Shown: piece after piece, positions 60 to 50,868 of the stretch
How the letters are laid out: each line of letters opens with the position of its first letter
Numbering within the stretch: the stretch's first letter is position 1
Source of the DNA: Candidatus Aenigmatarchaeota archaeon
Lineage (GTDB): Archaea; Aenigmatarchaeota; Aenigmatarchaeia; GW2011-AR5; JAGGXF01
NCBI GenBank assembly: GCA_021157845.1
Contig: JAGGVU010000013.1
Coordinates: forward strand, 11,192-75,191
Direction: 5' to 3'
DNA: 64,000 nucleotides
The notes under the pieces: model-generated
Database searches by the model: none
What the model was told of the DNA's origin: nothing
The model's input: only the letters and a program-made list of their open reading frames with translations
Made by a program: the position numbers and the translations under genes

Positions 60-243
60 TGCGGTGACCGGGAATTTCACTACCATTTCTCTTTTACATT
101 CAAGCTTTTCTCTTTTTAAGAGAAAAGGTTGATTTGAACCCGAGTCTTAACCTTGGCAAGGTTATGTCCTAACCAAATTTTCCAGTCTTTTCCGCAAGCG
201 CTTTTGCGACGAAGTCGGAAAAGGGCTTCTAGACTATCACCGC
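60..243 (-). tRNA. tRNA-Gly(GCC) with two predicted introns (D-loop, T-loop)
   Basis: Reverse complement reads GCGGTGA-TA-GTCTAGA[~50 nt insert]TTGGTTAGGAC-A-TAACC-TTGCCAA-GGTTA-..-TCGGG-TTCAAAT[~58 nt insert]CCCGG-TCACCGC-A. Acceptor, anticodon and T stems pair. The anticodon loop is uninterrupted. Confidence 0.75.
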
Positions 244-4655: not shown

Positions 4656-5225
4656 TTAATGTTGTTGTTTTATTGGAAAAATTCCTTCAAGGCAGTAGAC
4701 AGTTAATTTGCCTTCACATTTATCTCTTTCACAGATTGGTGTCATATTACATAAAGGACACAACTTAACAGTTAGCTCATTTTTGTCTACTTCAAGGGTT
4801 CCTTGTTTATCATGCAATTTGTACAGGAGCTTGAGGTATTTACCTTCTGCAATTCTTGGCACTTTGTCCTTGTTTTTCAGCCCAACCCATTCATAGAGCC
4901 TTTTACCACCCTTGGATGAATTGCACTTCTTACAAACTTTTATTGCATTATCAGGAGTATCTGGTCCACCACAAGACTTTGGCAAAATATGCTCAACCGT
5001 CAAATTTTCTTTTGAGCCACAGTAAATACACTCATTTGGTTTCTCATGTTCCTTAATCCATTCTCTAATAGCAGTCGACCATTTTATCTTGCCATCTCTC
5101 AAGGCAATAAAACGATTCATCTGAAATGCTCTTTGATTTATACCAAATCCTGCAGACTTAGAAATTAGTTTAGCGTATTGCCAGAAAATTTCATCCTTTA
5201 TTGTTTTTACAACTGCCGGCGGCAT
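4656..5225 (-). CDS. HNH endonuclease domain protein
   Basis: [38 protein letters not shown] is a classic HNH (CxxC...H...N...H/CxxC) signature. There is an extra C-terminal Cys cluster. Confidence 0.8.
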
Positions 5226-5293: not shown

Positions 5294-5499
5294 CGCTGGG
5301 AGAGGGATTCGAACCCCCACGTGCATCCATATCAATCAGATAAATCTGATAAATACAATGGCACACTAGCTACCAAGTTTTCTCTGCAACCAGCGTAAAA
5401 CTGGTTCAGTGACTCATCATGTCCGCCGAGTCAGAGTCAAGCCATGTCTTCATCGAAAACCTCAAGGCTAGCGCGTTAACCTGGTTCCGCAATCCCAGC
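5294..5499 (-). tRNA. tRNA-Ser(UGA), type II, with a long anticodon-loop intron and a probable second insert in the variable arm
   Basis: Reverse complement: GCTGGGA-TT-GCGGAACCAGGTTAACGC-G-CTAGC-CTTGAG[~110 nt]A-GCTAG-TGTGC[~36 nt]GCACG-T-GGGGG-TTCGAAT-CCCTC-TCCCAGC-G. Confidence 0.7.
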
Positions 5500-5533: not shown

Positions 5534-5706
5534 CGCCGAGGGCAGGATTTTCACAAATCTTTCTTCGGTTTCAAGTTTCTTTGGGATCGAAGACCGACGT
5601 GCAAAGCACGTCAAGTTGTTTTCGAAATGGATTTGGTTCGAACCTGCACGTCCAGAGGACACACGGTCTCGAGCCGTGCGCGTTAACCTGGTTCCGCCAC
5701 CTCGGC
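5534..5706 (-). tRNA. tRNA-Ser(CGA), type II, with an intron in the T-loop
   Basis: Reverse complement: GCCGAGG-TG-GCGGAACCAGGTTAACGC-G-CACGG-CTCGAGA-CCGTG-TGTCCTCTGGACGT-GCAGG-TTCGAA[~88 nt]T-CCTGC-CCTCGGC-G. Confidence 0.75.
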
Positions 5707-11041: not shown

Positions 11042-12574
11042 CTATACAACTACCTTTAGTAACATTTTTGTTTTTTTTGGCCGCCTAGATTTTATAATAA
11101 ATGAATCTTCATATGCATCCAACGCATTTTTCATTTTGATTTTATTTTCAGCATAAATTTTAAATAACGGTTCGCCATGTGAAATTTTATCACCTATTTT
11201 TTTAAATAACTCTATGCCAGCACCTTTGTCACCAGGACAGCCCGCAGCAATAGCTGTACGGACCAGATTCTTATTATGTATGTTATGGATATACCCAGAT
11301 TTTTTTGCCTTAACTATTCTTGTCTCTTTACCGACTCTTATATCCCCTATAGTCACCTTCTCATTTCCTCCTTGCTCTTTTATTATTTCTCTGAACTTTT
11401 TCTCTGCCAATCCAGAATTAAAAATTTTTACTGCCCTGGCCTTTCCTTCCTCAGCTGAGTAATCTTTGCCAACCATTTTGAAGAGGATACCGGAAAGTGA
11501 AGTTGCCTTGTCTATAAGGTCTTTTGACTTGCTATTTGAAAAAGTATTAAGTATATCTCTCGCCTCAAGAGCCGGACCCATTGAATAACCAAGAGGTTGT
11601 GAAGCGTTTGTAACAGCACATTCTATTTTCATGCCAAACCTTTTCCCGATTTTTATAAACTTCCGTGCAAGTTTGGACGCAACTGACATATCCTTTATTT
11701 TTGCCTGGGTAGGTCCCATTGGCATATCAAGAATAATATATTTAGATCCCATTACTTTTTTCTTTGCAATTATCGAGGGTATCATCATAGCATCAGAGTC
11801 TAGCGGATGTTCTATCTGTATAAATAGATCATCAGCAGGTGCGAGCTTGAATGACCCACCCCATATTATGCATCCACCGGTTTTCTTAACAGTCCTTCTT
11901 ATCGCTCTAGCATCAAGCTGGACAGGAGCAAAAATCTCAAATCTATCTGCTGTTCCTGCTGGATCAGTTATCGCGCGTGAAGAGCTTTTTGGTATAGTCA
12001 GGCCGGCTGCAGCAACTATCGAAACAAGTAATATGCTGGTCTTATCTCCGGGTATGCCACCTATGCTGTGTTTGTCAACAATTTTTCCTCTAAACGTAAA
12101 TTTTTCACTTGTATCTATCATTGCTTTAGTAAATCCGTACGCTTCAGAATCTGATAGGGGCCTAATATCAAATGATGAAATCAGAGAAGCAAGTGCAAGG
12201 TCGCTTAGTTTGTGCTCCAAAACATCATCGACTATCTGCCTTATTTTTTTATTGGTTAGTTCTTTACCGCGTATTCTTTCGCGGATGAATTTTTTTGAAT
12301 TGAGAAATGGTCTGGCCCGTACATCAACAATATCTCCATTCTTAATTTTAAGTATGTCATTCACATCATCGTATATAATTATTTCTCTGGGTTTTACTAT
12401 TTTTTCACTTGTGTTTACTATGCATGTTATGTCTTCTTTTTTGCTTTTGACTATTACACGCTCTAGTGGCTTAACAGCTAGCTTTTTTGCAGTTTTATTA
12501 TTAAGTATAACAATCATTTTTCCGCCAGATGTAAGTCCTGGCAAGCGTGCTTTTAGCTTCATATTTATCCCCAT
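11042..12574 (-). CDS. deoA: AMP phosphorylase (thymidine phosphorylase family with N-terminal extension)
   Basis: KHSIGGIPGDKTS phosphate-binding motif, ~500 aa with an N-terminal extra domain. Overlaps the upstream form III RuBisCO gene. Confidence 0.8.
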   Translation of the reverse strand: MGINMKLKARLPGLTSGGKMIVILNNKTAKKLAVKPLERVIVKSKKEDITCIVNTSEKIVKPREIIIYDDVNDILKIKNGDIVDVRARPFLNSKKFIRERIRGKELTNKKIRQIVDDVLEHKLSDLALASLISSFDIRPLSDSEAYGFTKAMIDTSEKFTFRGKIVDKHSIGGIPGDKTSILLVSIVAAAGLTIPKSSSRAITDPAGTADRFEIFAPVQLDARAIRRTVKKTGGCIIWGGSFKLAPADDLFIQIEHPLDSDAMMIPSIIAKKKVMGSKYIILDMPMGPTQAKIKDMSVASKLARKFIKIGKRFGMKIECAVTNASQPLGYSMGPALEARDILNTFSNSKSKDLIDKATSLSGILFKMVGKDYSAEEGKARAVKIFNSGLAEKKFREIIKEQGGNEKVTIGDIRVGKETRIVKAKKSGYIHNIHNKNLVRTAIAAGCPGDKGAGIELFKKIGDKISHGEPLFKIYAENKIKMKNALDAYEDSFIIKSRRPKKTKMLLKVVV

Positions 12575-13785
12575 TTATCTAGTGCTTGTTTAAGTTCTTT
12601 ATGTGCCTTGGCGTATTTTTTTAGATTAATCTTTTTCATTGAAGCGATTAGTGCCTGTTTCATGGCTTTTGCTCCAGCCCTGGTTCCAGCAGGATGCCCG
12701 TGAACTCCGCCACCGGCCTGTATAACGATGTCATTTCCAAGTATTTTTACGATTTGCGGAACCAACGAAGGATAAACGCCACCAGAAGAAACAGCAAAAA
12801 CGGGTTTAATGTTAAACCATTGCTGTTCAAGATAACTGGATGGCTTTACGTGTTGATACTCAATCATATTTTTTATCAGCACAATTTCCTTTTTATCACC
12901 TTCCATTTTCCCAACTGCTGTTCCTATATGCAGTTGGTCAACACCTATTAGACGAGAGAGTTTAGCAATAACATACATAGAAATCCCGTGCTTCTTATTT
13001 CGCGTAAATGTTGCATGCCCTGCCCGATGAGCATGTATAACCATTTTATAGTTCTGGTTTCTGATCTCCTGCAAGGCCGACCAGCCTGCTGATAGTATAT
13101 CAACCATTATACACTTGCCGCCATGCTCTTTAACAAAGTCAGCCCTTTCAATCATTGTTTTCATTGGAGCTGTTATGTTTGCCGCATATAAAACATTTCT
13201 GCCCTCTTCCTCTTTTATTTTATCTGCCATATCCAATGTATTTATAACCCTGTCTTCAAATTTGCAGAATTTCATTGATGTTAAATTTTCATCATCTTTT
13301 ACAAAATCCAATCCTCCTTTCCAAGCATTATATGCTACAGTTGCCCATTCCTTTGCATTTAGACCAACCTTTGGTTTTACAATTGTTCCAAGATGGGGGC
13401 GAACCTTTGTTTTTATTAATCTTCGAACGCCGCCTATGCCAAATGCAGGGCCTTTGAAAGACTTGATATATGATTTTGGAAATTGTATATCAACAAGACG
13501 TAAATTTTTTAAGAGCTTCATACCAAAAACATTTCCACCCAAACTTGACATGAGCTGTGGAACACTTCCAAACTCAAATAAATCTGAAGGATAAGCAATA
13601 TCAACAGTTTTATTTTTTTTGGAAATTTTCATAATTTTCGGTGATAATTTTTTTTGTATTTTTCTAGTTAAGGTTTTTATTTCTGTCCAAGTTCCAATTG
13701 AGGATTCTGCAGCTATCTGTTGCACGGCCCTTTCCCGACTAACAGAAGCAGTTTCAAAATAATATCTCGCGGTTATAAAATCCAT
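12565..13785 (-). CDS. rbcL: RuBisCO large subunit, form III-like
   Basis: GGLDFVKDDE (carbamylated Lys site), VKPK, HAHRAGHA, SGG and GGGVHGHP motifs are all intact. Confidence 0.9.
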   Translation of the reverse strand: MDFITARYYFETASVSRERAVQQIAAESSIGTWTEIKTLTRKIQKKLSPKIMKISKKNKTVDIAYPSDLFEFGSVPQLMSSLGGNVFGMKLLKNLRLVDIQFPKSYIKSFKGPAFGIGGVRRLIKTKVRPHLGTIVKPKVGLNAKEWATVAYNAWKGGLDFVKDDENLTSMKFCKFEDRVINTLDMADKIKEEEGRNVLYAANITAPMKTMIERADFVKEHGGKCIMVDILSAGWSALQEIRNQNYKMVIHAHRAGHATFTRNKKHGISMYVIAKLSRLIGVDQLHIGTAVGKMEGDKKEIVLIKNMIEYQHVKPSSYLEQQWFNIKPVFAVSSGGVYPSLVPQIVKILGNDIVIQAGGGVHGHPAGTRAGAKAMKQALIASMKKINLKKYAKAHKELKQALDKWG

Positions 13786-13789
13786 GATC

Positions 13790-14608
13790 TCACCTCAATA
13801 TCGCCAAAATATCCTTTGGCTTTTTTATTCCATCCTCCATAACTACGCCTGTTATATAACGCCACGGAGTTATATCAAAGGCCGGATTGATAATCTTTAC
13901 GCCTCTTATTTTTTTATAAACTTCAGATGGCGGCCTTATCTCTATTTTCACTTTTTTCCTTTTATCTATCTTGAATTTTGAGCCGACAACATAAAACGGT
14001 ATATTACTTTCAGACGCAGCAAGTGCCAGAAAGTAGGTACCGATTTTATTTATTACTCCCTCTTTTCGCATGGCGTCGCAACCAACTATAATTATATCAT
14101 CTTTTGGAATAACTGGATCTGTAAACGCTAGCGTTGCTGCATTGTCCTCTATTAATGTTACTGATATATTTTTTATTTTTGCAAGTTCTTTTGCTGTCTT
14201 TATGCCTTGTTGTCTTGGCATTGTTATATCTGCTATGACTGAAAATTTCTTTTTTTTAGCTGCCTCCTTAATGACAGCCAAAGCTTCTGATGAATGACAG
14301 TGGGTATGAACATGGTATCCCCTTTTTATCAACTGTTGACCAGTTGCGGCTATTAATTCAGTCGCCTTATCCAATTCTGCTAAAAGTTTGTCTATCGTTT
14401 CTTTTCGTTTATCTCTCCTAAGCTCATTAATAACATTGTAAAGGACAACTGCTGTCGATCTGGCAGATAAAAGCTTTTTACATTCCTTGTCAAACTCATG
14501 ACCAAATCCGTGAATTCGGGAAAATTTTTTAAGATGCCTGAGCGAAGCAGTTGCAATCTCTTTAGCTCCTTGAATTTTCAGTGATTTGATATCTTGAATA
14601 ACTGACAT
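13790..14608 (-). CDS. ribose-1,5-bisphosphate isomerase (eIF-2B alpha/beta/delta-like, e2b2)
   Basis: eIF-2B-family sequence (VHTHCHSSEA.., GCDAM..G.V.NK.GT) placed immediately upstream of rbcL and deoA on the minus strand. Confidence 0.75.
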   Translation of the reverse strand: MSVIQDIKSLKIQGAKEIATASLRHLKKFSRIHGFGHEFDKECKKLLSARSTAVVLYNVINELRRDKRKETIDKLLAELDKATELIAATGQQLIKRGYHVHTHCHSSEALAVIKEAAKKKKFSVIADITMPRQQGIKTAKELAKIKNISVTLIEDNAATLAFTDPVIPKDDIIIVGCDAMRKEGVINKIGTYFLALAASESNIPFYVVGSKFKIDKRKKVKIEIRPPSEVYKKIRGVKIINPAFDITPWRYITGVVMEDGIKKPKDILAILR

Positions 14609-16109: not shown

Positions 16110-16288
16110 AGCGAGGTGGGAGAGTTGAACTCCCTTCTCCCGGTTTCTGCTTCTTTTGACTGAATTTCTTCGGTTTTGGATCCAACCTTTTTTAAAGGTT
16201 GTTTTTGACTGAACTTCTTCGGTTTTGGATCCAACCTTTTTTAAAGGTTGGCCTGCAGCCGGGTGCATAACCGTTCTGCCAACCTCGC
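16110..16288 (-). tRNA. tRNA-Cys(GCA) with a ~108-nt anticodon-loop intron
   Basis: Reverse complement: GCGAGGT-TG-GCAGAACGGTTATGC-A-CCCGG-CTGCAG[intron]A-CCGGG-AGAA-GGGAG-TTCAACT-CTCCC-ACCTCGC-T. Confidence 0.75.
16153..16250 (-). repeat. 49-nt tandem direct duplication (47/49 identical) inside the tRNA-Cys intron
   Basis: Unit 16153-16201 and unit 16202-16250 differ at two positions. Each unit contains the hairpin CAACCTTT-AAA-AAAGGTTG. Confidence 0.9.
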
Positions 16289-24668: not shown

Positions 24669-27600
24669 CTATTTCTTTTTGAATATTTTATCAAGTTTTT
24701 TGTGCAAGTCTTTTATGTTAGCTGATTGTCTGACTGGTCTATATTTGTAAGAGCCTTGCCTATAAGATGGCTGTGAAAATTTTCCACTTTGAACTACATA
24801 CCAGCCTGCCACTGCTAATATTATAATTACTAAAATAATTGCGATTGTTGACCAGCTTACACCACCGGTCTTTGGTTTCAGCGAAGATATTTCTGCTTCA
24901 AGCGTTTTTGCACTAGCTTCTCCGCTATCAAGCAATTGTGACGCCGTGAAATAGTTGTTTTCATCTATGTTGGTTTTTATCTCCGACAGCTTTGTTTTCA
25001 AAGCTACTAATAAAGTCTCAACCCTTGTTGTGTTTTTGTTTTGCCTCTGAGCAGCTGTTATTAGCTGTTCTAACTCAGAAACTTTTTTTGTCAGGTTAGT
25101 GTATCTCTCTTTTATAACTGCCTGCGTAGCTTCATTTGGCGTGACGCGCAATTTATATGTCTTGGTAGCTTCTTTTGTCAGACTTGCTGCTTTTGCTGTA
25201 AATTCGTAGTCCTTCACAGTTGCGTTGAAAGGTATAGAAAAATTAATTGTAAACGTTGCTGTACTGCCAACGGCAAGCTCTTCAACTTCTTCTGGTGTAA
25301 TTTTATACCAGTCACCAATTCCGCTAAGTGTTAAAGAAACGTGCTCTAATATTTGATTATAATTATTTTTCACTTTTATTTCTATTACTTTTGAATCTCC
25401 CTGAATTATTTCTGTTGTACCCAATGTGGTTAATATTGAAATTGGTGTTTCTGATTCGCCGGCTACTGCAAAATATGAAAACCCTGAAACAGTTGCCTCA
25501 TAATATACATAGCTGGTTGACTCAGTCGTCTTTGTCGTGGGTTGTTCAATCCACTCGTCATTAACATACTTTTTCAGCACAATTGTATCTTTATCTATGC
25601 TATGGCTACTAATCCAAGATTTTGGCACCTTAAACTTTATAATAGCAGAATCGATATCAGAATTAGAAAAGCCGCTTTTGGTTATCTTAATATATTTGTA
25701 AACAGAGCCTTTGTCAGATGAGATTGCTGCCGATGCTCCTGATGGCTTAGATGATTTTTCTATTGTTAATGAACCTGATATTGTATTTTTTGCTTTAATT
25801 ACTACTTTTTCCACTGCAATGTCAGCCCATTTTGAAAACGGATATGTTCTTGACTGGCCTTTTGATACAGAAATAGTTTCTGTCTCTGAGATTGTTGTGT
25901 CTGTGTCACTCCCACTTTGACTACTACTAGACTTGCATGCTCCATTTGAACATCCATATGTACAATAAACTTTTGTCCAATCTCCATCATCACACATAGC
26001 TCTGTTAGATGAATCATAACATTCGTCCGAATATTCACCGTCACCGTACCTTGTACCATCATGATAACAATCTCCTGATGCTGCACACCATTTTCCACTT
26101 CCGTCATAGTCAGATACACAACGGTTAGATGCACAATCGTCATTGCTGTCACAAACTTCTCCATTTGCAAGTGCTGTCCCGTTTACAACTGGATTTATAC
26201 CTGAGAAATGTGGTATTTTCATCCATATCATATGCTTTGTTGTATCAACATAACATAGTGCTGAACTCATGGTTGAGTCTGATTTACTACATGCCATACC
26301 ATCATTTACATATGAAGCATAATCACCTGTTGCATAGTCTGCATACTCGGTGCCTGTTAAATTATCTGTTGAGTTAACACCCCGCTCCCATATTACATTC
26401 CAATCTTCATCATAAAATTTGTCTATTGTAACTGTGAAATCCCAGTCATCATTATATGCACTAGAATTATATGGTATCCCTAATAATACATCGTCATATA
26501 TTTCAGGTCCCATACTTCCAAATCTCCAAGCCTCTGCCATTGCTGACTGCCCCTGAGTGGTGTTGGAAGAATCGTCAAACATTGCATCTGGAGGACCAGA
26601 AGCAAGCATATCAACATTATTGAACTGGACTGTTATATTGTTGCTCGCTTTTCTCATTCTGAAGTTTATCTTTCCGCCGCCCATTATTACTGACATCGGG
26701 TTGAAATCATCTCCAAATGTTTTTTCACTTCCACCTAACATACAGTCATCAGACGGGTAAGGAACATTGCAATCATCAGAATATTTATACATACCTATTT
26801 CTATGTCATCAAAACCACTCTCAATTGCAAATATATTTATTGTGTTATCTGACGAAGTATACGCAAAACAATCATCATCGCTAGTGTCATTTGTTGGTGC
26901 TTTATATTGCAAACCAGTTGGAACTTTTGAGACTTCATTTTCAGCCATAAATTTGAGTTTATAACCATCTTTTGTCATAACCATATATTCTTTTAATTTT
27001 CCTCCAGAATCATTTACACCCATCCATAAAAACATTGGTTCGCGCTCTTCTTTTATTATTTGCATATATCCTAGTGATAAATTATTTCCATCTATATCCG
27101 CAGTATTTCTGTGTAAAAGAGAAAAGTCTGTTATATTCAAAACATCAACAACATTTGTTAATGTTCCTGATACATCAGCGACGGCACTAACAAAAGACAG
27201 ATTTTGGTAAACCTCAATGTCTGTTACAGCCGTATAATTCAAATCAGAAATATCATAGCCATTATTAGTATCATTTAGATATGTTGTATTCATGTATATT
27301 TCTGTTACGTTATCTTTGTAGAACGCAGAAACATTTGTCACATCAGTCCAATCTGATAAATCAACTGTACTATTATAATTAAAAGTTCCACTATCTGAAG
27401 CCAAATTATTACCAGTATACAAAACCAATTTATCAGTTCCATTTAGATAAAACCAATATGTTCCATTATATTCAAGACCTCTTGTATGATTAGTAATATT
27501 ATAATTTTCTTCTTCAACGATTTCGTCTTCTATTTTTCCAGGTTTGAAACTGTTTAGAGTAATTATAACAGGATCGCTCTGAAGCTCTGCTACACTTAAA

Positions 27601-29585
27601 GAAGTTTTTAATGGTGCATCTGCCTGGCTAAATATGTTTATTTTGGTTATAGATGCATTGAAAACAGGTATTGAAAACGCTCCGTTATCATTTTCATCTA
27701 TATCTGTCATCCATGAAAATGTTGCACTGTTATAACTACTATAGTCGACTTCGACCTCTATATGTGCAAAATCAACATAGTCCCCGGTGGACTCCCTTAC
27801 TGAGAAATTTTTCATTGCTGTAGTAACATTCACATCACTCCAATCTGATGCGTCATTCATTGTTATGTTTGTTGCAGACCCCATCAGCTTATAAAGCGTG
27901 GCATTAACTTCCATTGCAGTCCCGCTTGCGTTTACTGTTATATTTTTAAAAGCACCGTAGTAAGTTCCTTCAGACGAATTATAAGCTGTTATGAAAAGCA
28001 ATACATTATTTCCCAATGTATTTCCAGGTATTGTTATATTGAAAAATCCTCCTGACGCATTATATTGATCTGAAACATTGTTTGTATTATTGTTGTCATG
28101 ATTTTCATCTCTCCACGCACTCATGTTATATGGCATCGCCATTCCACTAAAGACCATATTTCCCGGCTCAAATATGTATGGAACTACTGTTAGGCTGTCA
28201 AGACCTGAACCAGTACTGGTATTGACATAACCATATACCCATGTCAAGACTTCTGTAACATTTATGGATATGTTAATATGTGGTGAAGAGCCGTAGTCAG
28301 AAATATTGTTTAAGTTGTAGCTACTGGGCATTGCTTCTTGCGGATAAACCATTATTGAATAATTCCTGTCAACTGGAAGATAAATCGTTGCTTGTTTGAC
28401 TCTGTTATTCATACCAAACTGCTCAGCCACAGGATAACCAAGTTTCGTATCTTTTACCATATATTCAAACTGCTTATTAGCTATTGTGAAGTTAAATTCA
28501 TTTGCTGTATTGTCCTGTGCTGATGCATAGTACCATGTGCCGTTTGCATTAACCAGGCCGTCAACCTGTTTTGTAAAATTGTAGGGTGTTGATAGATACA
28601 TGCTATTCCAATCATTGTCAAATATTGTCATGTTAAATGTTCCTGATGAATTATAAGCAAGATACCATGTGTCGTCATAATTTTCTATATAACCTTTGTA
28701 GGCAGAATCAAGAGGCACATCTTCTACTAAATCTACAGATGTTGGAGTTAAATTTAGCTTTAGAATACCACTAAATGAACTGTTATATGTTGATAAATAC
28801 CAAATGCCATTCAAATACTCCATATCATATATTCTGGTTAAATTATATCCACTTATATTCCAACTATTGTTTACACTCCAATCAGTTATATTATAGCTTG
28901 TTATATTTGTGGCGTTTGCAACATAAAGAAGCCCCGTATCATTGCAATAAGCTAATGCAGACGCATTTGTTAAAGTAGAGGTGGAAGATGAACTGTTAAA
29001 AGTAAAGTCAGAATTATAGACAAGTATATAATTTGAATTATTCAAAACGAAAAATTTGTTTGTAACGGGATTATATGCAAGACCTGTCTTGAAAGAAGTG
29101 TTAATATCATATGACGCCACTTCTGTTACTTCTAAATCTTCACCATAAACTGTCAGGTTAATTGTAGCAGCTTCTTGAAGATAAAAAGAAATATTATTCA
29201 AATTTTCAAATTCCATTGCAGGAAAAGATGGAAGTGATTTGCCAACATAGTCAGCATCTGTGCTGCTGCCAGATTTATAATGAACAATCGATGGCTTATA
29301 CATTATATCATCGATGAGCGGTATTCCTGAAAGGTTGAAAAATCCATTGCCATCACTAGTATTTGAATATGTTCCATTTTCTGGATTCTCCCAGTTGCTG
29401 TAATTATATAATGTAATAGTTATGTTTGTATTATTTAATGGATTCCCATCCGTGTCGTACGTATATCCCCAGAAATCAAACGTATCAGCAAAAACTGCAG
29501 AGCTTAGGCCAATAACTATGAGTGAAAAAACGAGTAATTTGGATAATTTTTTCGTAGAATAAAACAACATAGATTCATCTTTCAT
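24669..29585 (-). CDS. giant (1638 aa) surface protein with N-x-S/T-rich body, Cys-rich module, PGF-pre-PGF-like domain, coiled coil and C-terminal TM anchor
   Basis: N-terminal signal/TM, very many N-x-S/T sequons, ten Cys within 73 residues, a ..YEATVSGFSYFAVAG domain end, then the same beta-sandwich/coiled-coil/TM module as the 305-aa protein. Confidence 0.8.
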   Translation of the reverse strand: MKDESMLFYSTKKLSKLLVFSLIVIGLSSAVFADTFDFWGYTYDTDGNPLNNTNITITLYNYSNWENPENGTYSNTSDGNGFFNLSGIPLIDDIMYKPSIVHYKSGSSTDADYVGKSLPSFPAMEFENLNNISFYLQEAATINLTVYGEDLEVTEVASYDINTSFKTGLAYNPVTNKFFVLNNSNYILVYNSDFTFNSSSSTSTLTNASALAYCNDTGLLYVANATNITSYNITDWSVNNSWNISGYNLTRIYDMEYLNGIWYLSTYNSSFSGILKLNLTPTSVDLVEDVPLDSAYKGYIENYDDTWYLAYNSSGTFNMTIFDNDWNSMYLSTPYNFTKQVDGLVNANGTWYYASAQDNTANEFNFTIANKQFEYMVKDTKLGYPVAEQFGMNNRVKQATIYLPVDRNYSIMVYPQEAMPSSYNLNNISDYGSSPHINISINVTEVLTWVYGYVNTSTGSGLDSLTVVPYIFEPGNMVFSGMAMPYNMSAWRDENHDNNNTNNVSDQYNASGGFFNITIPGNTLGNNVLLFITAYNSSEGTYYGAFKNITVNASGTAMEVNATLYKLMGSATNITMNDASDWSDVNVTTAMKNFSVRESTGDYVDFAHIEVEVDYSSYNSATFSWMTDIDENDNGAFSIPVFNASITKINIFSQADAPLKTSLSVAELQSDPVIITLNSFKPGKIEDEIVEEENYNITNHTRGLEYNGTYWFYLNGTDKLVLYTGNNLASDSGTFNYNSTVDLSDWTDVTNVSAFYKDNVTEIYMNTTYLNDTNNGYDISDLNYTAVTDIEVYQNLSFVSAVADVSGTLTNVVDVLNITDFSLLHRNTADIDGNNLSLGYMQIIKEEREPMFLWMGVNDSGGKLKEYMVMTKDGYKLKFMAENEVSKVPTGLQYKAPTNDTSDDDCFAYTSSDNTINIFAIESGFDDIEIGMYKYSDDCNVPYPSDDCMLGGSEKTFGDDFNPMSVIMGGGKINFRMRKASNNITVQFNNVDMLASGPPDAMFDDSSNTTQGQSAMAEAWRFGSMGPEIYDDVLLGIPYNSSAYNDDWDFTVTIDKFYDEDWNVIWERGVNSTDNLTGTEYADYATGDYASYVNDGMACSKSDSTMSSALCYVDTTKHMIWMKIPHFSGINPVVNGTALANGEVCDSNDDCASNRCVSDYDGSGKWCAASGDCYHDGTRYGDGEYSDECYDSSNRAMCDDGDWTKVYCTYGCSNGACKSSSSQSGSDTDTTISETETISVSKGQSRTYPFSKWADIAVEKVVIKAKNTISGSLTIEKSSKPSGASAAISSDKGSVYKYIKITKSGFSNSDIDSAIIKFKVPKSWISSHSIDKDTIVLKKYVNDEWIEQPTTKTTESTSYVYYEATVSGFSYFAVAGESETPISILTTLGTTEIIQGDSKVIEIKVKNNYNQILEHVSLTLSGIGDWYKITPEEVEELAVGSTATFTINFSIPFNATVKDYEFTAKAASLTKEATKTYKLRVTPNEATQAVIKERYTNLTKKVSELEQLITAAQRQNKNTTRVETLLVALKTKLSEIKTNIDENNYFTASQLLDSGEASAKTLEAEISSLKPKTGGVSWSTIAIILVIIILAVAGWYVVQSGKFSQPSYRQGSYKYRPVRQSANIKDLHKKLDKIFKKK

Positions 29586-30640: not shown

Positions 30641-30898
30641 CGCCCCTGACGGGAATTTCAGAGCCTTTTCAGATTTTTTCATTGAAGCTTTTTTCTAAAA
30701 AGGCTCATTTGAACCCGCGACTTCTTGCTTTATCCGACAAAAGTTCTGATCATCCTTTACTAAAAGTAAAGTCACTTCACCTCCTTGTCTTCATCTTAGG
30801 AGGCAAGCACTCTATCCAAATTCCTCCACCATTTTATTTTTCCGCCAGCGCTTTTTCACTGGTTTCACAAATAAAAGGGCTGTCTGAGTTACAGGGGC
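30641..30898 (-). tRNA. tRNA-Arg(CCU) with three predicted introns (D-loop, anticodon loop, T-loop)
   Basis: Reverse complement: GCCCCTG-TA-ACTCAGA[~63 nt]TTGGATAGAGT-G-CTTGC-CTCCTAA[~66 nt]GCAAG-AAGTC-GCGGG-TTCAAAT[~52 nt]CCCGT-CAGGGGC-G. Confidence 0.7.
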
Positions 30899-43287: not shown

Positions 43288-43941
43288 TTACATTTTTGCC
43301 AAAACAAAACAATGGTCTTTCTGATATGGGCTCAGCTCAATTTCACTTTCTATTTTAAATCCCGCTTTTTTTAGTTTTTTTATTTCCTGCTTGTAAACAT
43401 CTTTAGGTGATTTTACAACATCAATGCTTTGCGATTTTATGGCGAGCATGAGATATCCGCCGGGTTTTAAAAATTCTTTACAGTTTCTTATTGCTATTTC
43501 AGTTTCATCTGGCTGTGAAACGTCAACATAAACCAAATCAACTTGCTCAACATATGGATATTCTTCCGGCTTTCTCGCGTCCGCCATTATCGGCATTATA
43601 TTTTTTCTTTCTTTTACCACCTTTATTAGCTCTCTCATCATTCTCTCCGCAAATTCAATCCCGTATATTAACCCACTTTTTCCAATTATATCGCTTACAT
43701 GACTTGCTGTTGTTCCAGCGCTTATTCCTAAATATAAAATTACAGAGCCGGACTTAATGGGAAATATTTTTAATCCGTTTAAAATGGCTGCTGCCAACTT
43801 TGAGCGTGTTGGATCCCATTTTCTATATTGAAAACCATGCACGTCGATAAGTTTTTCTCCATATACTCGTATATGTGGTGTGAGATTTTGGGTGTAAATA
43901 TTATTACCTTTTCTTAAAATGGTGTCAAATATTTTTTTCAT
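43288..43941 (-). CDS. flpA: fibrillarin (rRNA/tRNA 2'-O-methyltransferase)
   Basis: Fibrillarin pattern: WDP.RSKLAA, VLYLGISAGTT.SHVSD SAM-binding motif. Confidence 0.9.
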   Translation of the reverse strand: MKKIFDTILRKGNNIYTQNLTPHIRVYGEKLIDVHGFQYRKWDPTRSKLAAAILNGLKIFPIKSGSVILYLGISAGTTASHVSDIIGKSGLIYGIEFAERMMRELIKVVKERKNIMPIMADARKPEEYPYVEQVDLVYVDVSQPDETEIAIRNCKEFLKPGGYLMLAIKSQSIDVVKSPKDVYKQEIKKLKKAGFKIESEIELSPYQKDHCFVLAKM

Positions 43942-44930
43942 TTTCTCATCTTCCTCATAGCCCGCTCCAATTCTTCTTTCAATTTTGGCTCAAACCGATT
44001 TGAATAAAAATCTATTCTTGCCGCCATCATAAGCTTTGACGAAACCAGCCTTGCAATTTTTCCTCTTATATGTTTTGGGGAATTTTGAATGTATTTGCTC
44101 ATGAAAATCAGGCCATATTTAGGAGACTTGATATGTTTCTTGTTTCTCAGGTGCCTGAATAATGCTTTCTCTGCTCCAAGAATCTGAATGGTTGACGACG
44201 AAAGCTTGGCCAGATTTTGTAAGGAACCGGCTTTTGACAACAGCCTAGCACCCAAAAGTGGATCTACAAGTGATGAAATGTTCGGACATATTTCTTTCAT
44301 AGAATTTTTGATATAATCCTCAATTTGCTTTCTCATTGCAATGGCCTGACATATAAAATAGGCATATTTTTTTACTATTTCTTCATCGCACTTGTCAAAT
44401 TTTATTCCTGTTGATTTTCTGAACTTGGGTATATTTTCTCTGGCCCCATATTCTGATACGATTTTTGCATATTTTTCATTATCTGCCTTTAACTCTGGAT
44501 AGTGCAAGCCAAACCATTCGGTTAGATGTTCTGAAAAAACATTTATCTGTTTTGTTAACTCATCTAAAGTGTTGGACGCCTGTATAATTAATTTGTCTTT
44601 TGTAATAGAAATACTGGCATTTGCGTTAGTTAATAAAATACCGAGCTCAGAAAGGAACCTATTCAGATCGCTATTTGTTTTGGCAAATCCAAGGCTTATT
44701 GCATAATCTCTAAAGTTTTCTCTCATAAATTTTAATGCTATTTTGTCTTGCTTAATTTCATACCCAGACAGTGATTTTAGAAAACTCTGAGAAAAGTTCC
44801 CAGTTAATTTTTTAAAGGCATTTTCTGCATTAGGCGAAAAAAGCTCGTAATAAATTAGCCTGCCTTTACTATCAAAAGCGAAAAACCCTATGGTTGACTT
44901 GCATATATGTGCAACCTGCTTTTTAGACAT
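43938..44930 (-). CDS. nop5: Nop56/58 (Nop5) C/D box sRNP core protein
   Basis: NOP domain motifs (LGA.KALFRHL...PKYG.I). ATGA overlap with flpA. Confidence 0.85.
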   Translation of the reverse strand: MSKKQVAHICKSTIGFFAFDSKGRLIYYELFSPNAENAFKKLTGNFSQSFLKSLSGYEIKQDKIALKFMRENFRDYAISLGFAKTNSDLNRFLSELGILLTNANASISITKDKLIIQASNTLDELTKQINVFSEHLTEWFGLHYPELKADNEKYAKIVSEYGARENIPKFRKSTGIKFDKCDEEIVKKYAYFICQAIAMRKQIEDYIKNSMKEICPNISSLVDPLLGARLLSKAGSLQNLAKLSSSTIQILGAEKALFRHLRNKKHIKSPKYGLIFMSKYIQNSPKHIRGKIARLVSSKLMMAARIDFYSNRFEPKLKEELERAMRKMRK

Positions 44931-47449: not shown

Positions 47450-47619
47450 TGCGCCTGGGCAGAATCGAACTGCCGATCTCCGCCATTCTTAGAATCATGT
47501 TTACACCAAAGCTTTTTCCTAAAAAGGCTCATGTGAGGGCGGTGTCATACCATTTTCCCCATCTTGCTCTTACACTAATCCTTTTCTAACGCTTTTTAAA
47601 AGGGTTAGACCACAGGCGC
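47450..47619 (-). tRNA. tRNA-Val(CAC) with two predicted introns (D-loop, anticodon loop)
   Basis: Reverse complement: GCGCCTG-TG-GTCTAA[~52 nt]TGGTATGAC-A-CCGCC-CTCACA[~46 nt]T-GGCGG-AGATC-GGCAG-TTCGATT-CTGCC-CAGGCGC-A. Confidence 0.7.
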
Positions 47620-50336: not shown

Positions 50337-50453
50337 TGATATTGGTCGTATTATGAACTTATACGGTGAATAAACTCTTCCGTCGAACATAAAATTCTTT
50401 AGAAATGAACTAACAAAAAGATAAAAATAAAAAAAACGGGTTAGTGCGCCCAA

Positions 50454-50546
50454 CTACTTTCTCTTTTTCTTCTTTTTTGTTTTTTTCTTTGCTTTTTTCT
50501 TTGTTTTTTTCTTTGCTTTTTTCTTAGCCTTTTTCTTCTTGGCCAT
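50454..50546 (-). CDS. candidate 30-aa poly-lysine peptide (MAKKKKAKKKAKKKTKKKAKKKTKKKKKRK)
   Basis: An ATG lies 6 nt downstream of AAGGAGTGA and the frame is open to a TAG. It is not in the track (under 60 aa) and could also be a non-coding purine-rich tract. Confidence 0.35.
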   Translation of the reverse strand: MAKKKKAKKKAKKKTKKKAKKKTKKKKKRK

Positions 50547-50694: not shown

Positions 50695-50868
50695 TGGGCC
50701 CGGCGAGATTTGAACTCACGCTCTCCAGTTAGCTCAGCCATTTCAGGCAGGTCAAATTTGTGCCTGAAAGTCGTATAAGACTGGCGCTTTAATTGCCCAA
50801 ACTTTTCTTTTCCATTGAAGCTTTTCTTTTTGAAAAAGAAAAGGTTCACCAGGCTAAGCTACGGGCCC
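50695..50868 (-). tRNA. tRNA-Ile(UAU) with two predicted introns (D-loop, anticodon loop)
   Basis: Reverse complement: GGGCCCG-TA-GCTTAGCCTGG[~57 nt]TAAAGC-G-CCAGT-CTTATA[~43 nt]A-ACTGG-AGAGC-GTGAG-TTCAAAT-CTCGC-CGGGCCC-A. Confidence 0.65.

Follow-up and report, generated by a model that had tools for sequence, protein, structure and literature searches.

The closest described counterparts of the element treated here are the transposed families of tRNA introns in Thermoproteales (Fujishima et al. 2010, as reported in PMC4090602), in which a tRNA carries up to three introns, spread at the DNA level is presumed with the mechanism unknown, and the junctions have to form a bulge-helix-bulge (BHB). 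The present analysis concerns a tRNA-Arg(CCU) gene with three inserts in a 64,000-nt stretch of DNA from a Candidatus Aenigmatarchaeota archaeon (contig JAGGVU010000013.1, positions 11,192 to 75,191; called the window below, with all positions in its own numbering) and a short repeat module that is found in two of these inserts. As far as the Thermoproteales families are described in that report, both cases have in common that similar intron sequences occur in non-orthologous tRNAs at different positions. Within the same limits they differ in their hosts, which are DPANN archaea and several euryarchaeal groups of low G+C content here, and in the conserved unit, which is a module within the intron and not the whole intron, carries a mirror purine tract, and is present also in rRNA, immediately behind stop codons, and next to tRNAs.

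For the bacterial intrastrand triplex repeats PIT, TM-ECO, and BoxC, triplex formation in vitro and a location at unstable intergenic sites are described (Holder et al. 2015, PMC4666352). Like these, the archaeal module is a short multi-copy repeat consisting of a pyrimidine tract, a loop, a purine tract, a loop, and a second purine tract (purine motif, class II), with conserved tracts and a variable first loop; the bacterial repeats are intergenic and linked to local genome rearrangement. TM-ECO belongs to proteobacteria, is rich in G/C (CCCTCNCCC...), is found only in intergenic DNA, and shows no preference for either strand. The archaeal module, in contrast, is rich in A/T, has a second loop clamped by GC, prefers the sense strand of expressed genes, and lies inside RNA genes within BHB introns. 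It thus has the layout of a triplex repeat, namely a pyrimidine tract, a complementary purine tract, and a mirror third tract, but neither the strictly intergenic location nor the lack of strand bias. Introners of algae and fungi are short non-coding repeats that generate or occupy spliceosomal introns and have defined terminal inverted repeats (TIRs) and target-site duplications (TSDs), and bacterial REP/BIME elements lie right after stop codons in fixed orientation and are mobilised by RAYT transposases. Unlike in these systems, neither defined TIRs and TSDs nor a RAYT transposase were found for the archaeal module.

DPANN archaea and Hadesarchaea with L3-loop splicing endonucleases are reported to show a marked increase in non-canonical and multiple tRNA introns and to yield incomplete tRNA sets with standard finders (PMC5829648). 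The window conforms to this, with none of its seven tRNAs found by ARAGORN; that work, however, covers the enzyme and the intron positions and not a shared sequence module within introns. Three-intron tRNAs are known in outline from Thermoproteales and were to be expected in DPANN archaea; transposed BHB intron families and intrastrand triplex repeats are known kinds as well. New are D- and T-loop inserts that have as their basis a compact repeat shared by several phyla, with triplex-type covariation and further copies in rRNA introns and intercistronic spacers; no description of this module was found in the searchable literature. The evidence points to a working tRNA-Arg(CCU) gene with three BHB introns and to a dispersed, most likely mobile repeat module that is kept in RNA genes only where a BHB forms, which we consider the probable explanation.

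The interrupted tRNA-Arg(CCU) gene

The gene consists of four exons and three inserts, all on the minus strand:
30641..30898, minus strand: tRNA-Arg(CCU) gene, four exons and three inserts, 258 nt; 7-bp acceptor stem GCCCCTG/CAGGGGC
30884..30898, minus strand: exon 1, nt 1-15 (acceptor 5' strand, D-stem 5' strand, A14 G15)
30821..30883, minus strand: insert 1, D-loop, 63 nt, position 15/16
30838..30879, minus strand: family 2 module in insert 1, CCCTTTT-ATTTGTGAAACCAGTG-AAAAAG-CGCTGGCG-GAAAA
30797..30820, minus strand: exon 2 (remaining D-loop, D-stem 3' strand, anticodon stem 5' strand, loop to A37)
30730..30796, minus strand: insert 2, anticodon loop, position 37/38, 67 nt
30708..30729, minus strand: exon 3 (A38 to A59)
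30655..30707, minus strand: insert 3, T-loop, position 59/60, 53 nt
30674..30703, minus strand: family 1 module in insert 3, CCTTTTT-AG-AAAAAAG-CTTCAAT-GAAAAAA
30641..30654, minus strand: exon 4 (U60 to discriminator G73)

After in silico removal of the three inserts, the exons (GCCCCTGTAACTCAG / TTTGGATAGAGTGCTTGCCTCCTA / AGCAAGAAGTCGCGGGTTCAAA / TCCCGTCAGGGGCG) join to a 75-nt sequence that ARAGORN identifies as tRNA-Arg(cct), with a flawless cloverleaf and all stems intact. A preliminary description had proposed a 258-nt tRNA-Arg(CCU) gene with three inserts, and this gene model (30898..30641) is borne out. The fold of the pre-tRNA has a z value of -5.4. The locus is complete in contigs of four independent metagenome runs, in which the exons are unchanged and a flanking open reading frame (ORF) has 5-6 single-nucleotide polymorphisms (SNPs). 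The perfect cloverleaf and the intact locus in four metagenomes indicate that the gene is neither a pseudogene nor an artefact; it is a genuine and apparently functional three-intron gene.

Splice motifs of the three inserts

A BHB consists of two 3-nt bulges on opposite strands with a 4-bp helix between them and is cut after the second bulge nucleotide. In sequence, 4 exon nt are followed by 2 nt and the cut (marked by a slash below), and on the opposite strand 4 intron nt are followed by 2 nt and the cut. This rule was checked first on the canonical anticodon intron of the tRNA-Ile gene in the window (CUUA UA/C ... UGAG CU/A; CUUA:UGAG).

Insert 3 in the T-loop has a textbook hBHBh' motif (UUCA AA/U ... 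UGAA AU/U), in which the central helix UUCA:UGAA forms 4/4 pairs, the outer helix is the 5-bp T stem, and the inner helix comprises 12-13 bp (GAGCCUUUUUAGA:UCUGAAAAGGCUC). Insert 2 in the anticodon loop has a good BHB (CUCC UA/A ... GGAU AA/A) with 3/4 pairs in the central helix CUCC:GGAU, a 5-bp anticodon stem, and a 7-bp inner helix. The D-loop insert, insert 1, has a relaxed BHB: the D-stem 5' strand ACUC pairs with GAGG 2 nt before the 3' junction (3/4 pairs), the bulges are AG/A and AA/U, and a long inner helix is formed by CA-CC-UUUUAUUU and AAAUAAAA-GG-UG. Since a second register 1 nt further 3', CUCA:GGAG (CTCA:GGAG on the exon 1 side), is equally good, this junction is uncertain by about 1 nt. 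Analogous relaxed motifs occur in the D-loop inserts of tRNA-Gly and tRNA-Val and in D-loop copies of other genomes (loci L053, L058, and L091). Of the three independent BHB motifs expected beforehand, those of the T-loop (perfect) and the anticodon loop (good) are therefore present, whereas the one in the D-loop is relaxed and has no outer exon helix. From this geometry, tRNA-Arg(CCU) is probably interrupted by three protein-spliced introns of the BHB type, their removal from tRNA-Arg itself being predicted by the gene model.

Two sequence families with one architecture

A scan for acceptor stems and the T-loop motif yielded seven tRNA genes in the 64 kb, all of them on the minus strand and all interrupted, with 12 inserts in total (60-243, 5294-5499, 5534-5706, 16110-16288, 30641-30898, 47450-47619, and 50695-50868). 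On the raw window, ARAGORN found 0/7 and Rfam 1/7 of these tRNAs, the latter being the Ile gene alone. In silico removal of the inserts gives ARAGORN-perfect tRNAs for Arg, Gly(GCC), Val(CAC), Ile(UAU), Cys(GCA), and Ser(CGA). A module of family 1 or family 2 is present in 7/12 inserts, namely the two in tRNA-Arg and the following five:
178..228, minus strand: D-loop insert of tRNA-Gly(GCC) (gene 243..60), family 2 module 225..188
74..132, minus strand: T-loop insert of tRNA-Gly, family 1 module 128..92
47553..47604, minus strand: D-loop insert of tRNA-Val(CAC) (gene 47619..47450), degenerate family 2 module 47604..47582 with a 3-nt loop deletion
47486..47531, minus strand: anticodon-loop insert of tRNA-Val, degenerate family 1 module
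50794..50847, minus strand: D-loop insert of tRNA-Ile(UAU) (gene 50868..50695), family 1 module 50844..50808

The three D-loop inserts that had been reported to share a motif are confirmed at 228..178 (Gly), 30883..30821 (Arg), and 47604..47553 (Val), and the motif represents a real sequence family. The gapped pattern GCCCTTTT..AAAAGCGCTKGCGGAAAA is exact in the inserts of tRNA-Gly and tRNA-Arg (2 matches vs. 0.01 expected), and an 18-mer of the motif has 2 matches vs. 0.15 expected. The degenerate tRNA-Val copy, which reads CCCTTTTAAAAAGCGTTAG, a gap of 3 nt, and AAAAGG, is the CGTTAGCG loop variant common in other genomes minus 3 nt; a strain variant with 10 nt of deletions inside this insert was also found.

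Both families follow a common plan. Tract 1, CC(C)TTTT with an extension, is followed by a variable hairpin loop; tract 2 is the complement of tract 1 and ends with AAAAG; an 8-nt loop then leads to tract 3, which is GAAAA with an extension. The complete module of about 35-55 nt can be written as [N-A-R] CC(C)-TTTT(+extension), hairpin loop, (extension')AAAAG, 8-nt GC-clamped loop, GAAAA(+extension''), and a span from tract 1 to tract 3 is, for example, CCCTTTTCTTTTT-loop-AAAAAGAAAAG-CGCTAGCG-GAAAAGAAAAAG. The pattern of family 1 is CCTTTT..AAAAGCTTSAATG.AAAA, and the two families differ mainly in the 8-nt loop, which is CTTSAATG in family 1 and CGYTNGCG in family 2. The latter, almost a palindrome, shows covariation (CG..CG, CC..GG, with U:A or C:G inside) and has tetraloops of the CUUG or UUCG type. 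Within the window, family 2 is hosted by the D-loops of Gly, Arg, and Val and family 1 by Gly-T, Arg-T, Val-anticodon, and Ile-D; the tRNA-Ile(UAU) insert shows that family 1 uses the D-loop as well. Closely similar insert sequences thus occupy different positions in non-orthologous tRNAs, and dozens more are found in other genomes. In the window and 29 related loci, Rfam matched the module neither at gathering nor at permissive thresholds.

Distribution of the module in archaeal genomes

Species-representative genomes (one per species) were scanned for family 2 with the pattern CCCTTTTN{0,30}AAAAGCGYTNGCGGAAA. At least 118 loci with at least 128 copies were obtained, compared with about one chance match by our own estimate; nearly all of them are archaeal and most belong to DPANN archaea. 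The counts that follow apply to the matches listed. Host labels are Aenigmarchaeota (about 34 loci), Woesearchaeota (13), Thermoplasmata (7), Micrarchaeota, Iainarchaeum, Altiarchaeota, and Methanophagales (4 each), Nanoarchaeia and Methanobacteriota (3 each), and Pacearchaeota and Hadesarchaea (2 each), with many further hosts being unclassified archaea; the hosts are metagenome-assembled genomes (MAGs). A bacterial label is attached to four loci. Two of these, L034 and L107, show long gaps that form no hairpin, as expected of chance matches; L050 has a proper hairpin module, and L098 lies beside a tRNA end of archaeal type.

More than half of the copies lie in sense orientation inside tRNA or rRNA genes. 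Among tRNA contexts, the T-loop is represented at least 25 times (directly after GGTTCRAA), the anticodon loop at least 13 times, and the D-loop about 7 times, and 6 copies are located just 3' of a tRNA. In rRNA, one copy is in the universal 515 region of a 16S gene (L096) and two are in 23S genes (L024, L061). About 60 copies are found elsewhere. Of these, 24 follow a stop codon on the same strand at a distance of 0-25 nt (0-1 nt in 8 cases), compared with 10 that face an opposite-strand start, and the stop-adjacent copies are located between separate complete ORFs such as S12 and S7, L23 and L2, S17 and L14, L18e and L13, or L30 and L15. The preliminary claim of a restriction to the D-loop is consequently true for the three copies in the window alone.

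A strict BHB is found above shuffled controls in tRNA-borne copies. Where a copy lies inside an RNA gene, its 5' end NAGCC(C)UUUU is paired with a complementary segment located right before the 4 exon-pairing nt. That the module is a self-contained BHB was rejected, as ORF-adjacent copies show no BHB above shuffled controls; the module is thus not an intron by itself. When single inserts were removed by brute force and the products submitted to ARAGORN, only 25 hosts were recovered, as several inserts are present in most of the hosts. For family 1, 34 loci were obtained from a metagenome scan. About half are in tRNA genes, with T-, anticodon-, and D-loops as locations, and the loci largely come from the same sediment communities.

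Some copies are embedded in longer repeated or conserved sequences. In L002 (Candidatus Altarchaeum, JAGWDQ010000088.1), the family 2 module and an identical 31-nt spacer are repeated in tandem at 4900-5100. In two MAGs, one of them labelled Altiarchaeota, the module (L003 6113-6144; L055 544-580) lies inside a conserved RNA-like sequence, between GACGAAGCGAACAACCNCTGACAG and ..GATGACTAATAGGCGAACYGAGGGGC, that has C/D-box-like motifs and no Rfam match. In Thermoplasmata (L039, L080, L085, L087, L094, L095, and L118), the module is part of a longer conserved unit between GAGCCCTTTCTTCAG and ATGTATCAGTTCTTTTTGGGATGAAGCAC, which may be a larger repeat or a non-coding RNA.

The mirror tract and a putative triple helix

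Beyond the fixed core, tract 3 is tract 2 reversed and thereby the parallel complement of tract 1. For family 2, 99/161 stem positions from 101 distinct hairpins are identical in mirror register 0, compared with 30-44% in registers slid by 1-3 nt. Permuting tract 3 among copies gave 49 +/- 7 matches, and 0/2000 permutations reached 99. The purine positions comprise 63 AA, 31 GG, 8 AG, and 7 GA. Family 1 shows the same mirror pattern in spite of its different loop (26/32 vs. 11-16/32). Examples are L029, CCCTTTTTCTTTCTCTT..AAGAGAAAGAAAAG-CGCTGGCG-GAAAAGAAAGAGAA, and the T-loop copy of tRNA-Gly in the window, CTTTTCTCTT..AAGAGAAAAG-CTTGAATGT-AAAAGAGAAA.

Mirror repeats cannot be generated by replication. 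Plain Watson-Crick pairing of tract 1 with tract 3 fits short symmetric cases and the inner helix of anticodon- and D-loop introns but fails for long asymmetric mirror tracts and in the register test. For a K-turn, inspection revealed no fitting G.A/A.G arrangement. As neither replication nor antiparallel Watson-Crick pairing explains the mirror, an intramolecular purine-motif triple helix is the natural reading. It would consist of A.A-U(T) and G.G-C triples with the third strand antiparallel to the duplex's purine strand, whereas the opposite strand would give a pyrimidine motif. G.U and A.C mismatches were too few (2 vs. 3) to assign the selected structure to one strand. In anticodon- and D-loop introns, tract 3 and the following GG are also the Watson-Crick partner of CCUUUU in the inner BHB helix; because of this second pairing role, the module may switch between folds. 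If the sequence comparison is read in this way, the three-way covariation is one of the rare instances in which comparison supports a purine-motif triple helix in an element that is natural and widely conserved.

Absence of a module-bearing insert from 16S rRNA

Locus L096 of a related Aenigmarchaeote carries a module in a 16S rRNA insert with a perfect BHB (GUGC CA/G AAGCCC-UUUUU...GGAAAAUAAUAGA-AGGGCUU GCAC AU/G CCGCCGCGGUAA), and removal of this insert restores the universal GTGCCAGCCGCCGCGGTAA. In three metatranscriptomes, contigs skip exactly 59 nt of L096 16S at the sites predicted by the BHB, and the depth inside the insert is zero. A contig from a fourth RNA run with 0 mismatches over 300 nt of variable flank crosses the same junction and also skips a second insert of 144 nt. 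At the level of contigs, and with intron-less relatives not wholly excluded, this shows that mature RNA lacks the module-bearing insert at the predicted sites. The 16S gene as a whole (L096 34-2375, minus strand) has at least two inserts (59 nt and 144 nt), both skipped in metatranscriptome contigs. RNA runs that hold L096 rRNA contained no reads on the module-bearing tRNA-Arg(UCU) of the same organism.

Origin of the inserts and alternative explanations

Several observations bear on the mobility of the module. It is multi-copy within genomes, and at the family 1 module of tRNA-Arg contig breaks and raised depth in four metagenomes indicate the same for this family. Insertion contexts are diverse and non-homologous, and there are copies in tandem, in antisense, and in partial form. 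Direct repeats of 11-31 nt on both sides of the module exceed the 99% control in 10/122 copies. One of them is L078, where a 14-nt duplicate (AAAAGGTGGAATAA) keeps both the S17 stop codon and the Shine-Dalgarno sequence of the next gene. Copies antisense to tRNAs were found in L098 (5361-5413 region), L011, and L028, and in L098 and L011 a 17-18-nt duplicate of the tRNA 3' end keeps a gene copy intact. A degenerate antisense copy within an anticodon intron was also observed (L150 8510). The peak 0-1 nt after TAA/TAG is compatible with the module inserting beside an A-A/G site and then surviving only at harmless places. In summary, the module is a dispersed, most likely mobile DNA repeat of many archaeal lineages.

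In the proposed course of events, the D-loop and T-loop introns of tRNA-Arg would each have been built around one copy of a dispersed DNA repeat that occurs chiefly in DPANN archaea and would do no harm directly behind stop codons or next to tRNA genes. In a tRNA or rRNA gene, the 5' end of the module, NAGCC(C)UUUU, would pair with its complement near the 3' end of the insert, and 4 nt of the insert 3' end would pair with the upstream exon to complete the BHB. This would then be cut by the splicing endonuclease, and a ligase would reseal the exons. In a further-reaching form, which is put forward tentatively, the module would be a pan-archaeal mobile element whose single strand (DNA or RNA) folds as a purine-motif triplex and which seeds BHB introns, making it an archaeal counterpart of introners.

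A number of points weigh against a mobile module and spliced introns. The D-loop insert has no canonical BHB and no outer exon helix in the geometry test and would need a splicing endonuclease of broad specificity, and no gene for such an enzyme was found among the 40 window ORFs scanned with Pfam; endonucleases with an extra loop from DPANN archaea and Hadesarchaea have been associated with many non-canonical introns (PMC5829648). No RNA runs holding the tRNA or thermosome gene of the window were found, so that splicing of tRNA-Arg is deduced from the gene model. Flanking direct repeats are confined to about 8% of the copies and vary in length, which speaks against general target-site duplication. 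The ends CCCTTTT... and ...GGAAAA form a mirror and not a terminal inverted repeat, whereas a miniature inverted-repeat element (MITE) or DNA transposon would have both TIRs and a TSD of fixed length. No associated transposase or linked enzyme was identified, viral contigs gave no match to the family 2 pattern, and DNA contigs of five metagenome runs contained no intron-less allele or empty site. Apparent intron-less joints at tRNA-Ile were explained by cross-mapping of intron-less tRNAs from other, abundant archaea. Moreover, conservation of the searched core was in part imposed by the exact-match pattern. To our knowledge, purine-motif triplexes are well documented for DNA and not for RNA.

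Alternatively, the module might be kept by selection for a function of its own, as a structural RNA or DNA triplex, a protein-binding site, or a terminator-plus-promoter cassette, with introns being merely one place where it is useful or tolerated. This explanation, which is compatible with mobility, is rather unlikely. The three-way covariation implies a selected structure, the orientation of the copies favours the sense strand of the gene that hosts them, and the most highly expressed loci (tRNA, rRNA, ribosomal-protein operons, thermosome) carry copies. In about a dozen cases, including L056, L063, L004, L005, and L047, a minimal AT-rich copy (TTTTAGAAAAA) brings a TATA-like box to a distance of 24-30 nt ahead of a start codon or tRNA 5' end, and NAGCC-TTTT resembles the organism's own tRNA promoters AAAACC-TTTAAAAC and GAAAGC-TTTTATAC. 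The distance to the next start codon, however, is broad (-9 to 99 nt) compared with the sharp peak at 0-1 nt after the upstream stop, 10/60 copies point into the 3' end of a convergent gene, and many tRNA-borne copies have GC-rich hairpins in place of the TATA-like loop. In addition, neither promoter nor terminator activity was observed for bacterial triplex repeats of similar design (PMC4666352). A promoter cassette was rejected as a general explanation, the spacing being suggestive in about a dozen copies.

The explanation given in the preliminary description, a lineage-specific intron family that arose in this genome, spreads only between D-loops, and is separate from family 1, is very unlikely. 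All three copies in the window do lie in D-loops at the same site after nt 15, and this site is also used by the D-loop copies of L053, L058, and L091; three of three in one loop type, however, has a chance of about 1 in 9 if three loops are equally likely. The identical core is found in T- and anticodon loops, rRNA, and intergenic DNA of many phyla, and the supposedly separate first family has the same sequence of pyrimidine tract, hairpin, purine tract, short loop, and mirror purine tract and occupies a D-loop in tRNA-Ile. While the observations made there were largely right, their interpretation is supported in part. There is likewise little probability that the inserts are boundaries of tandem tRNA pieces joined in trans via GAGCCUUUU:AAAAGGCUC pairing as in split tRNAs, where the T-run of the module would end the upstream piece and an internal promoter would start the next. 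The complementarity of 5' trailer and 3' leader around the module looks like that of split tRNAs in Nanoarchaeum, and a TATA-like core and a T4-6 run are present; but the pieces are contiguous and co-linear, which makes splicing in cis simpler, the T-runs are short (mostly 4), and the module-bearing 16S insert sits within a continuous rRNA. That the tRNA-Arg locus is a pseudogene or an assembly artefact, as might be suspected from its being missed by standard tRNA finders, has a negligible probability, given the perfect cloverleaf after splicing, the absence of exon substitutions in the four metagenome runs, and the same construction of all other tRNAs in the window.

The anticodon-loop insert as a box C/D candidate

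In Euryarchaeota, a box C/D sRNA is located inside the intron of tRNA-Trp. Box C/D sRNAs are recognised by a C box (RUGAUGA), a D box (CUGA), internal D'/C' boxes, and guides of about 12 nt. Insert 2 of tRNA-Arg consists of a C-box-like GAUGAAGA, 12 nt, GUGA, a hairpin, GAUGAUC, 11-12 nt, and CGGA. The anticodon insert of tRNA-Ser(UGA) reads GUUUUC-GAUGAAGA, 12 nt, CUGA, then AUGAUGA, and then CAGA-GAAAAC, with a terminal stem GUUUUC/GAAAAC. As in the tRNA-Trp intron, both inserts have GAUGAAGA, 12-nt spacers, and D'/C' boxes; unlike there, the boxes are imperfect (the D box is CGGA or CAGA) and Rfam gives no hit. A guide role is a prediction from the sequence. As a lead, insert 2 may be regarded as resembling an imperfect box C/D sRNA and the tRNA-Ser(UGA) insert as a better one. 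A fibrillarin and Nop5 gene pair at 43288-44930 (minus strand), 13 kb from tRNA-Arg, indicates that the box C/D methylation machinery is present.

The box C/D-like layout would account for the similarity of the two inserts (GAUGAAGAC) noticed earlier. GATGAAGACAAGG in Arg and GATGAAGACATGG in Ser(UGA) are indeed present, but the 9-mer core is not rare, with 14 hits at up to 1 mismatch vs. 11.6 expected. The segment AAGGAGG had been thought to form a classic anticodon-intron helix with CCTCCT. This pairing is possible, but the helix that sets the splice sites is CUCC:GGAU, which adjoins the 3' splice site. Within insert 2, AAGGAGG is part of the first 12-nt spacer, between GAUGAAGA and GUGA, and the anticodon loop and a 16S 3' end are equally possible pairing partners for it; its position fits a box C/D guide better than an anticodon-intron helix. 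A weak box C/D match (SNORD45, 29 bits, E = 0.16) also occurs at 26239-26310 (minus strand) within an ORF of 1638 aa (24669-29585).

Other features of the window

The window is archaeal with about 33% G+C and encodes a thermosome, class I and class II aminoacyl-tRNA synthetases, a PIN-ATPase-KH protein, fibrillarin with Nop5, and a form III RuBisCO. Its thermosome is 72% identical to that of an Aenigmarchaeota MAG, the nearest named relative among the loci fetched. The sequence recurs in metagenomes from hydrothermal vents and sediments; an exact look-up of the HisRS of the window in a contig index gave no match. An AMP-phosphorylase-like gene, the form III RuBisCO gene, and an e/aIF-2B-family gene of the ribose-1,5-bisphosphate isomerase type form an archaeal AMP salvage pathway cluster at 11042-14608 (minus strand).

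The remaining tRNA genes carry further inserts. In tRNA-Cys(GCA) (16110-16288, minus strand), a 108-nt anticodon insert is a tandem duplication of a unit of about 50 nt (CCAACCTTTAAAAAAGGTTGGATCCAAAACCGAAGAAGTTCAGTCAAAAA). This insert has AAACCGAAGAA in common with the 89-nt T-loop insert of tRNA-Ser(CGA) (5534-5706, minus strand), which defines a third insert family. For tRNA-Ser(UGA) (5294-5499, minus strand), there is a further candidate insert of 31 nt in the variable arm, with a 4/4 central helix (CCAT:ATGG). Directly downstream of the two tRNA-Ser genes, an HNH endonuclease ORF (4656-5225, minus strand) may encode a nuclease associated with a mobile element. At 50400-50523, contig depth in four metagenome runs is 50- to 1000-fold that of the neighbouring sequence and there are many loose ends, indicating a repeat or low-complexity stretch common to other genomes.

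Significance for archaeal intron gain

Multi-intron tRNAs and transposed intron families are known. The module links intron gain at three tRNA positions with rRNA introns and ordinary intergenic insertions across many archaeal phyla and offers a handle for comparing occupied with empty sites, for dating the spread, and for seeking the enzyme. It also explains why standard finders return incomplete tRNA sets from DPANN archaea (0/7 here), and a model of the module would improve annotation. If the introner-like reading is true, the heavy disruption of tRNA genes in DPANN archaea would largely be the footprint of one repeat class, and the triplex would be either the feature recognised for mobilisation or the cause of a local instability that copies the module.

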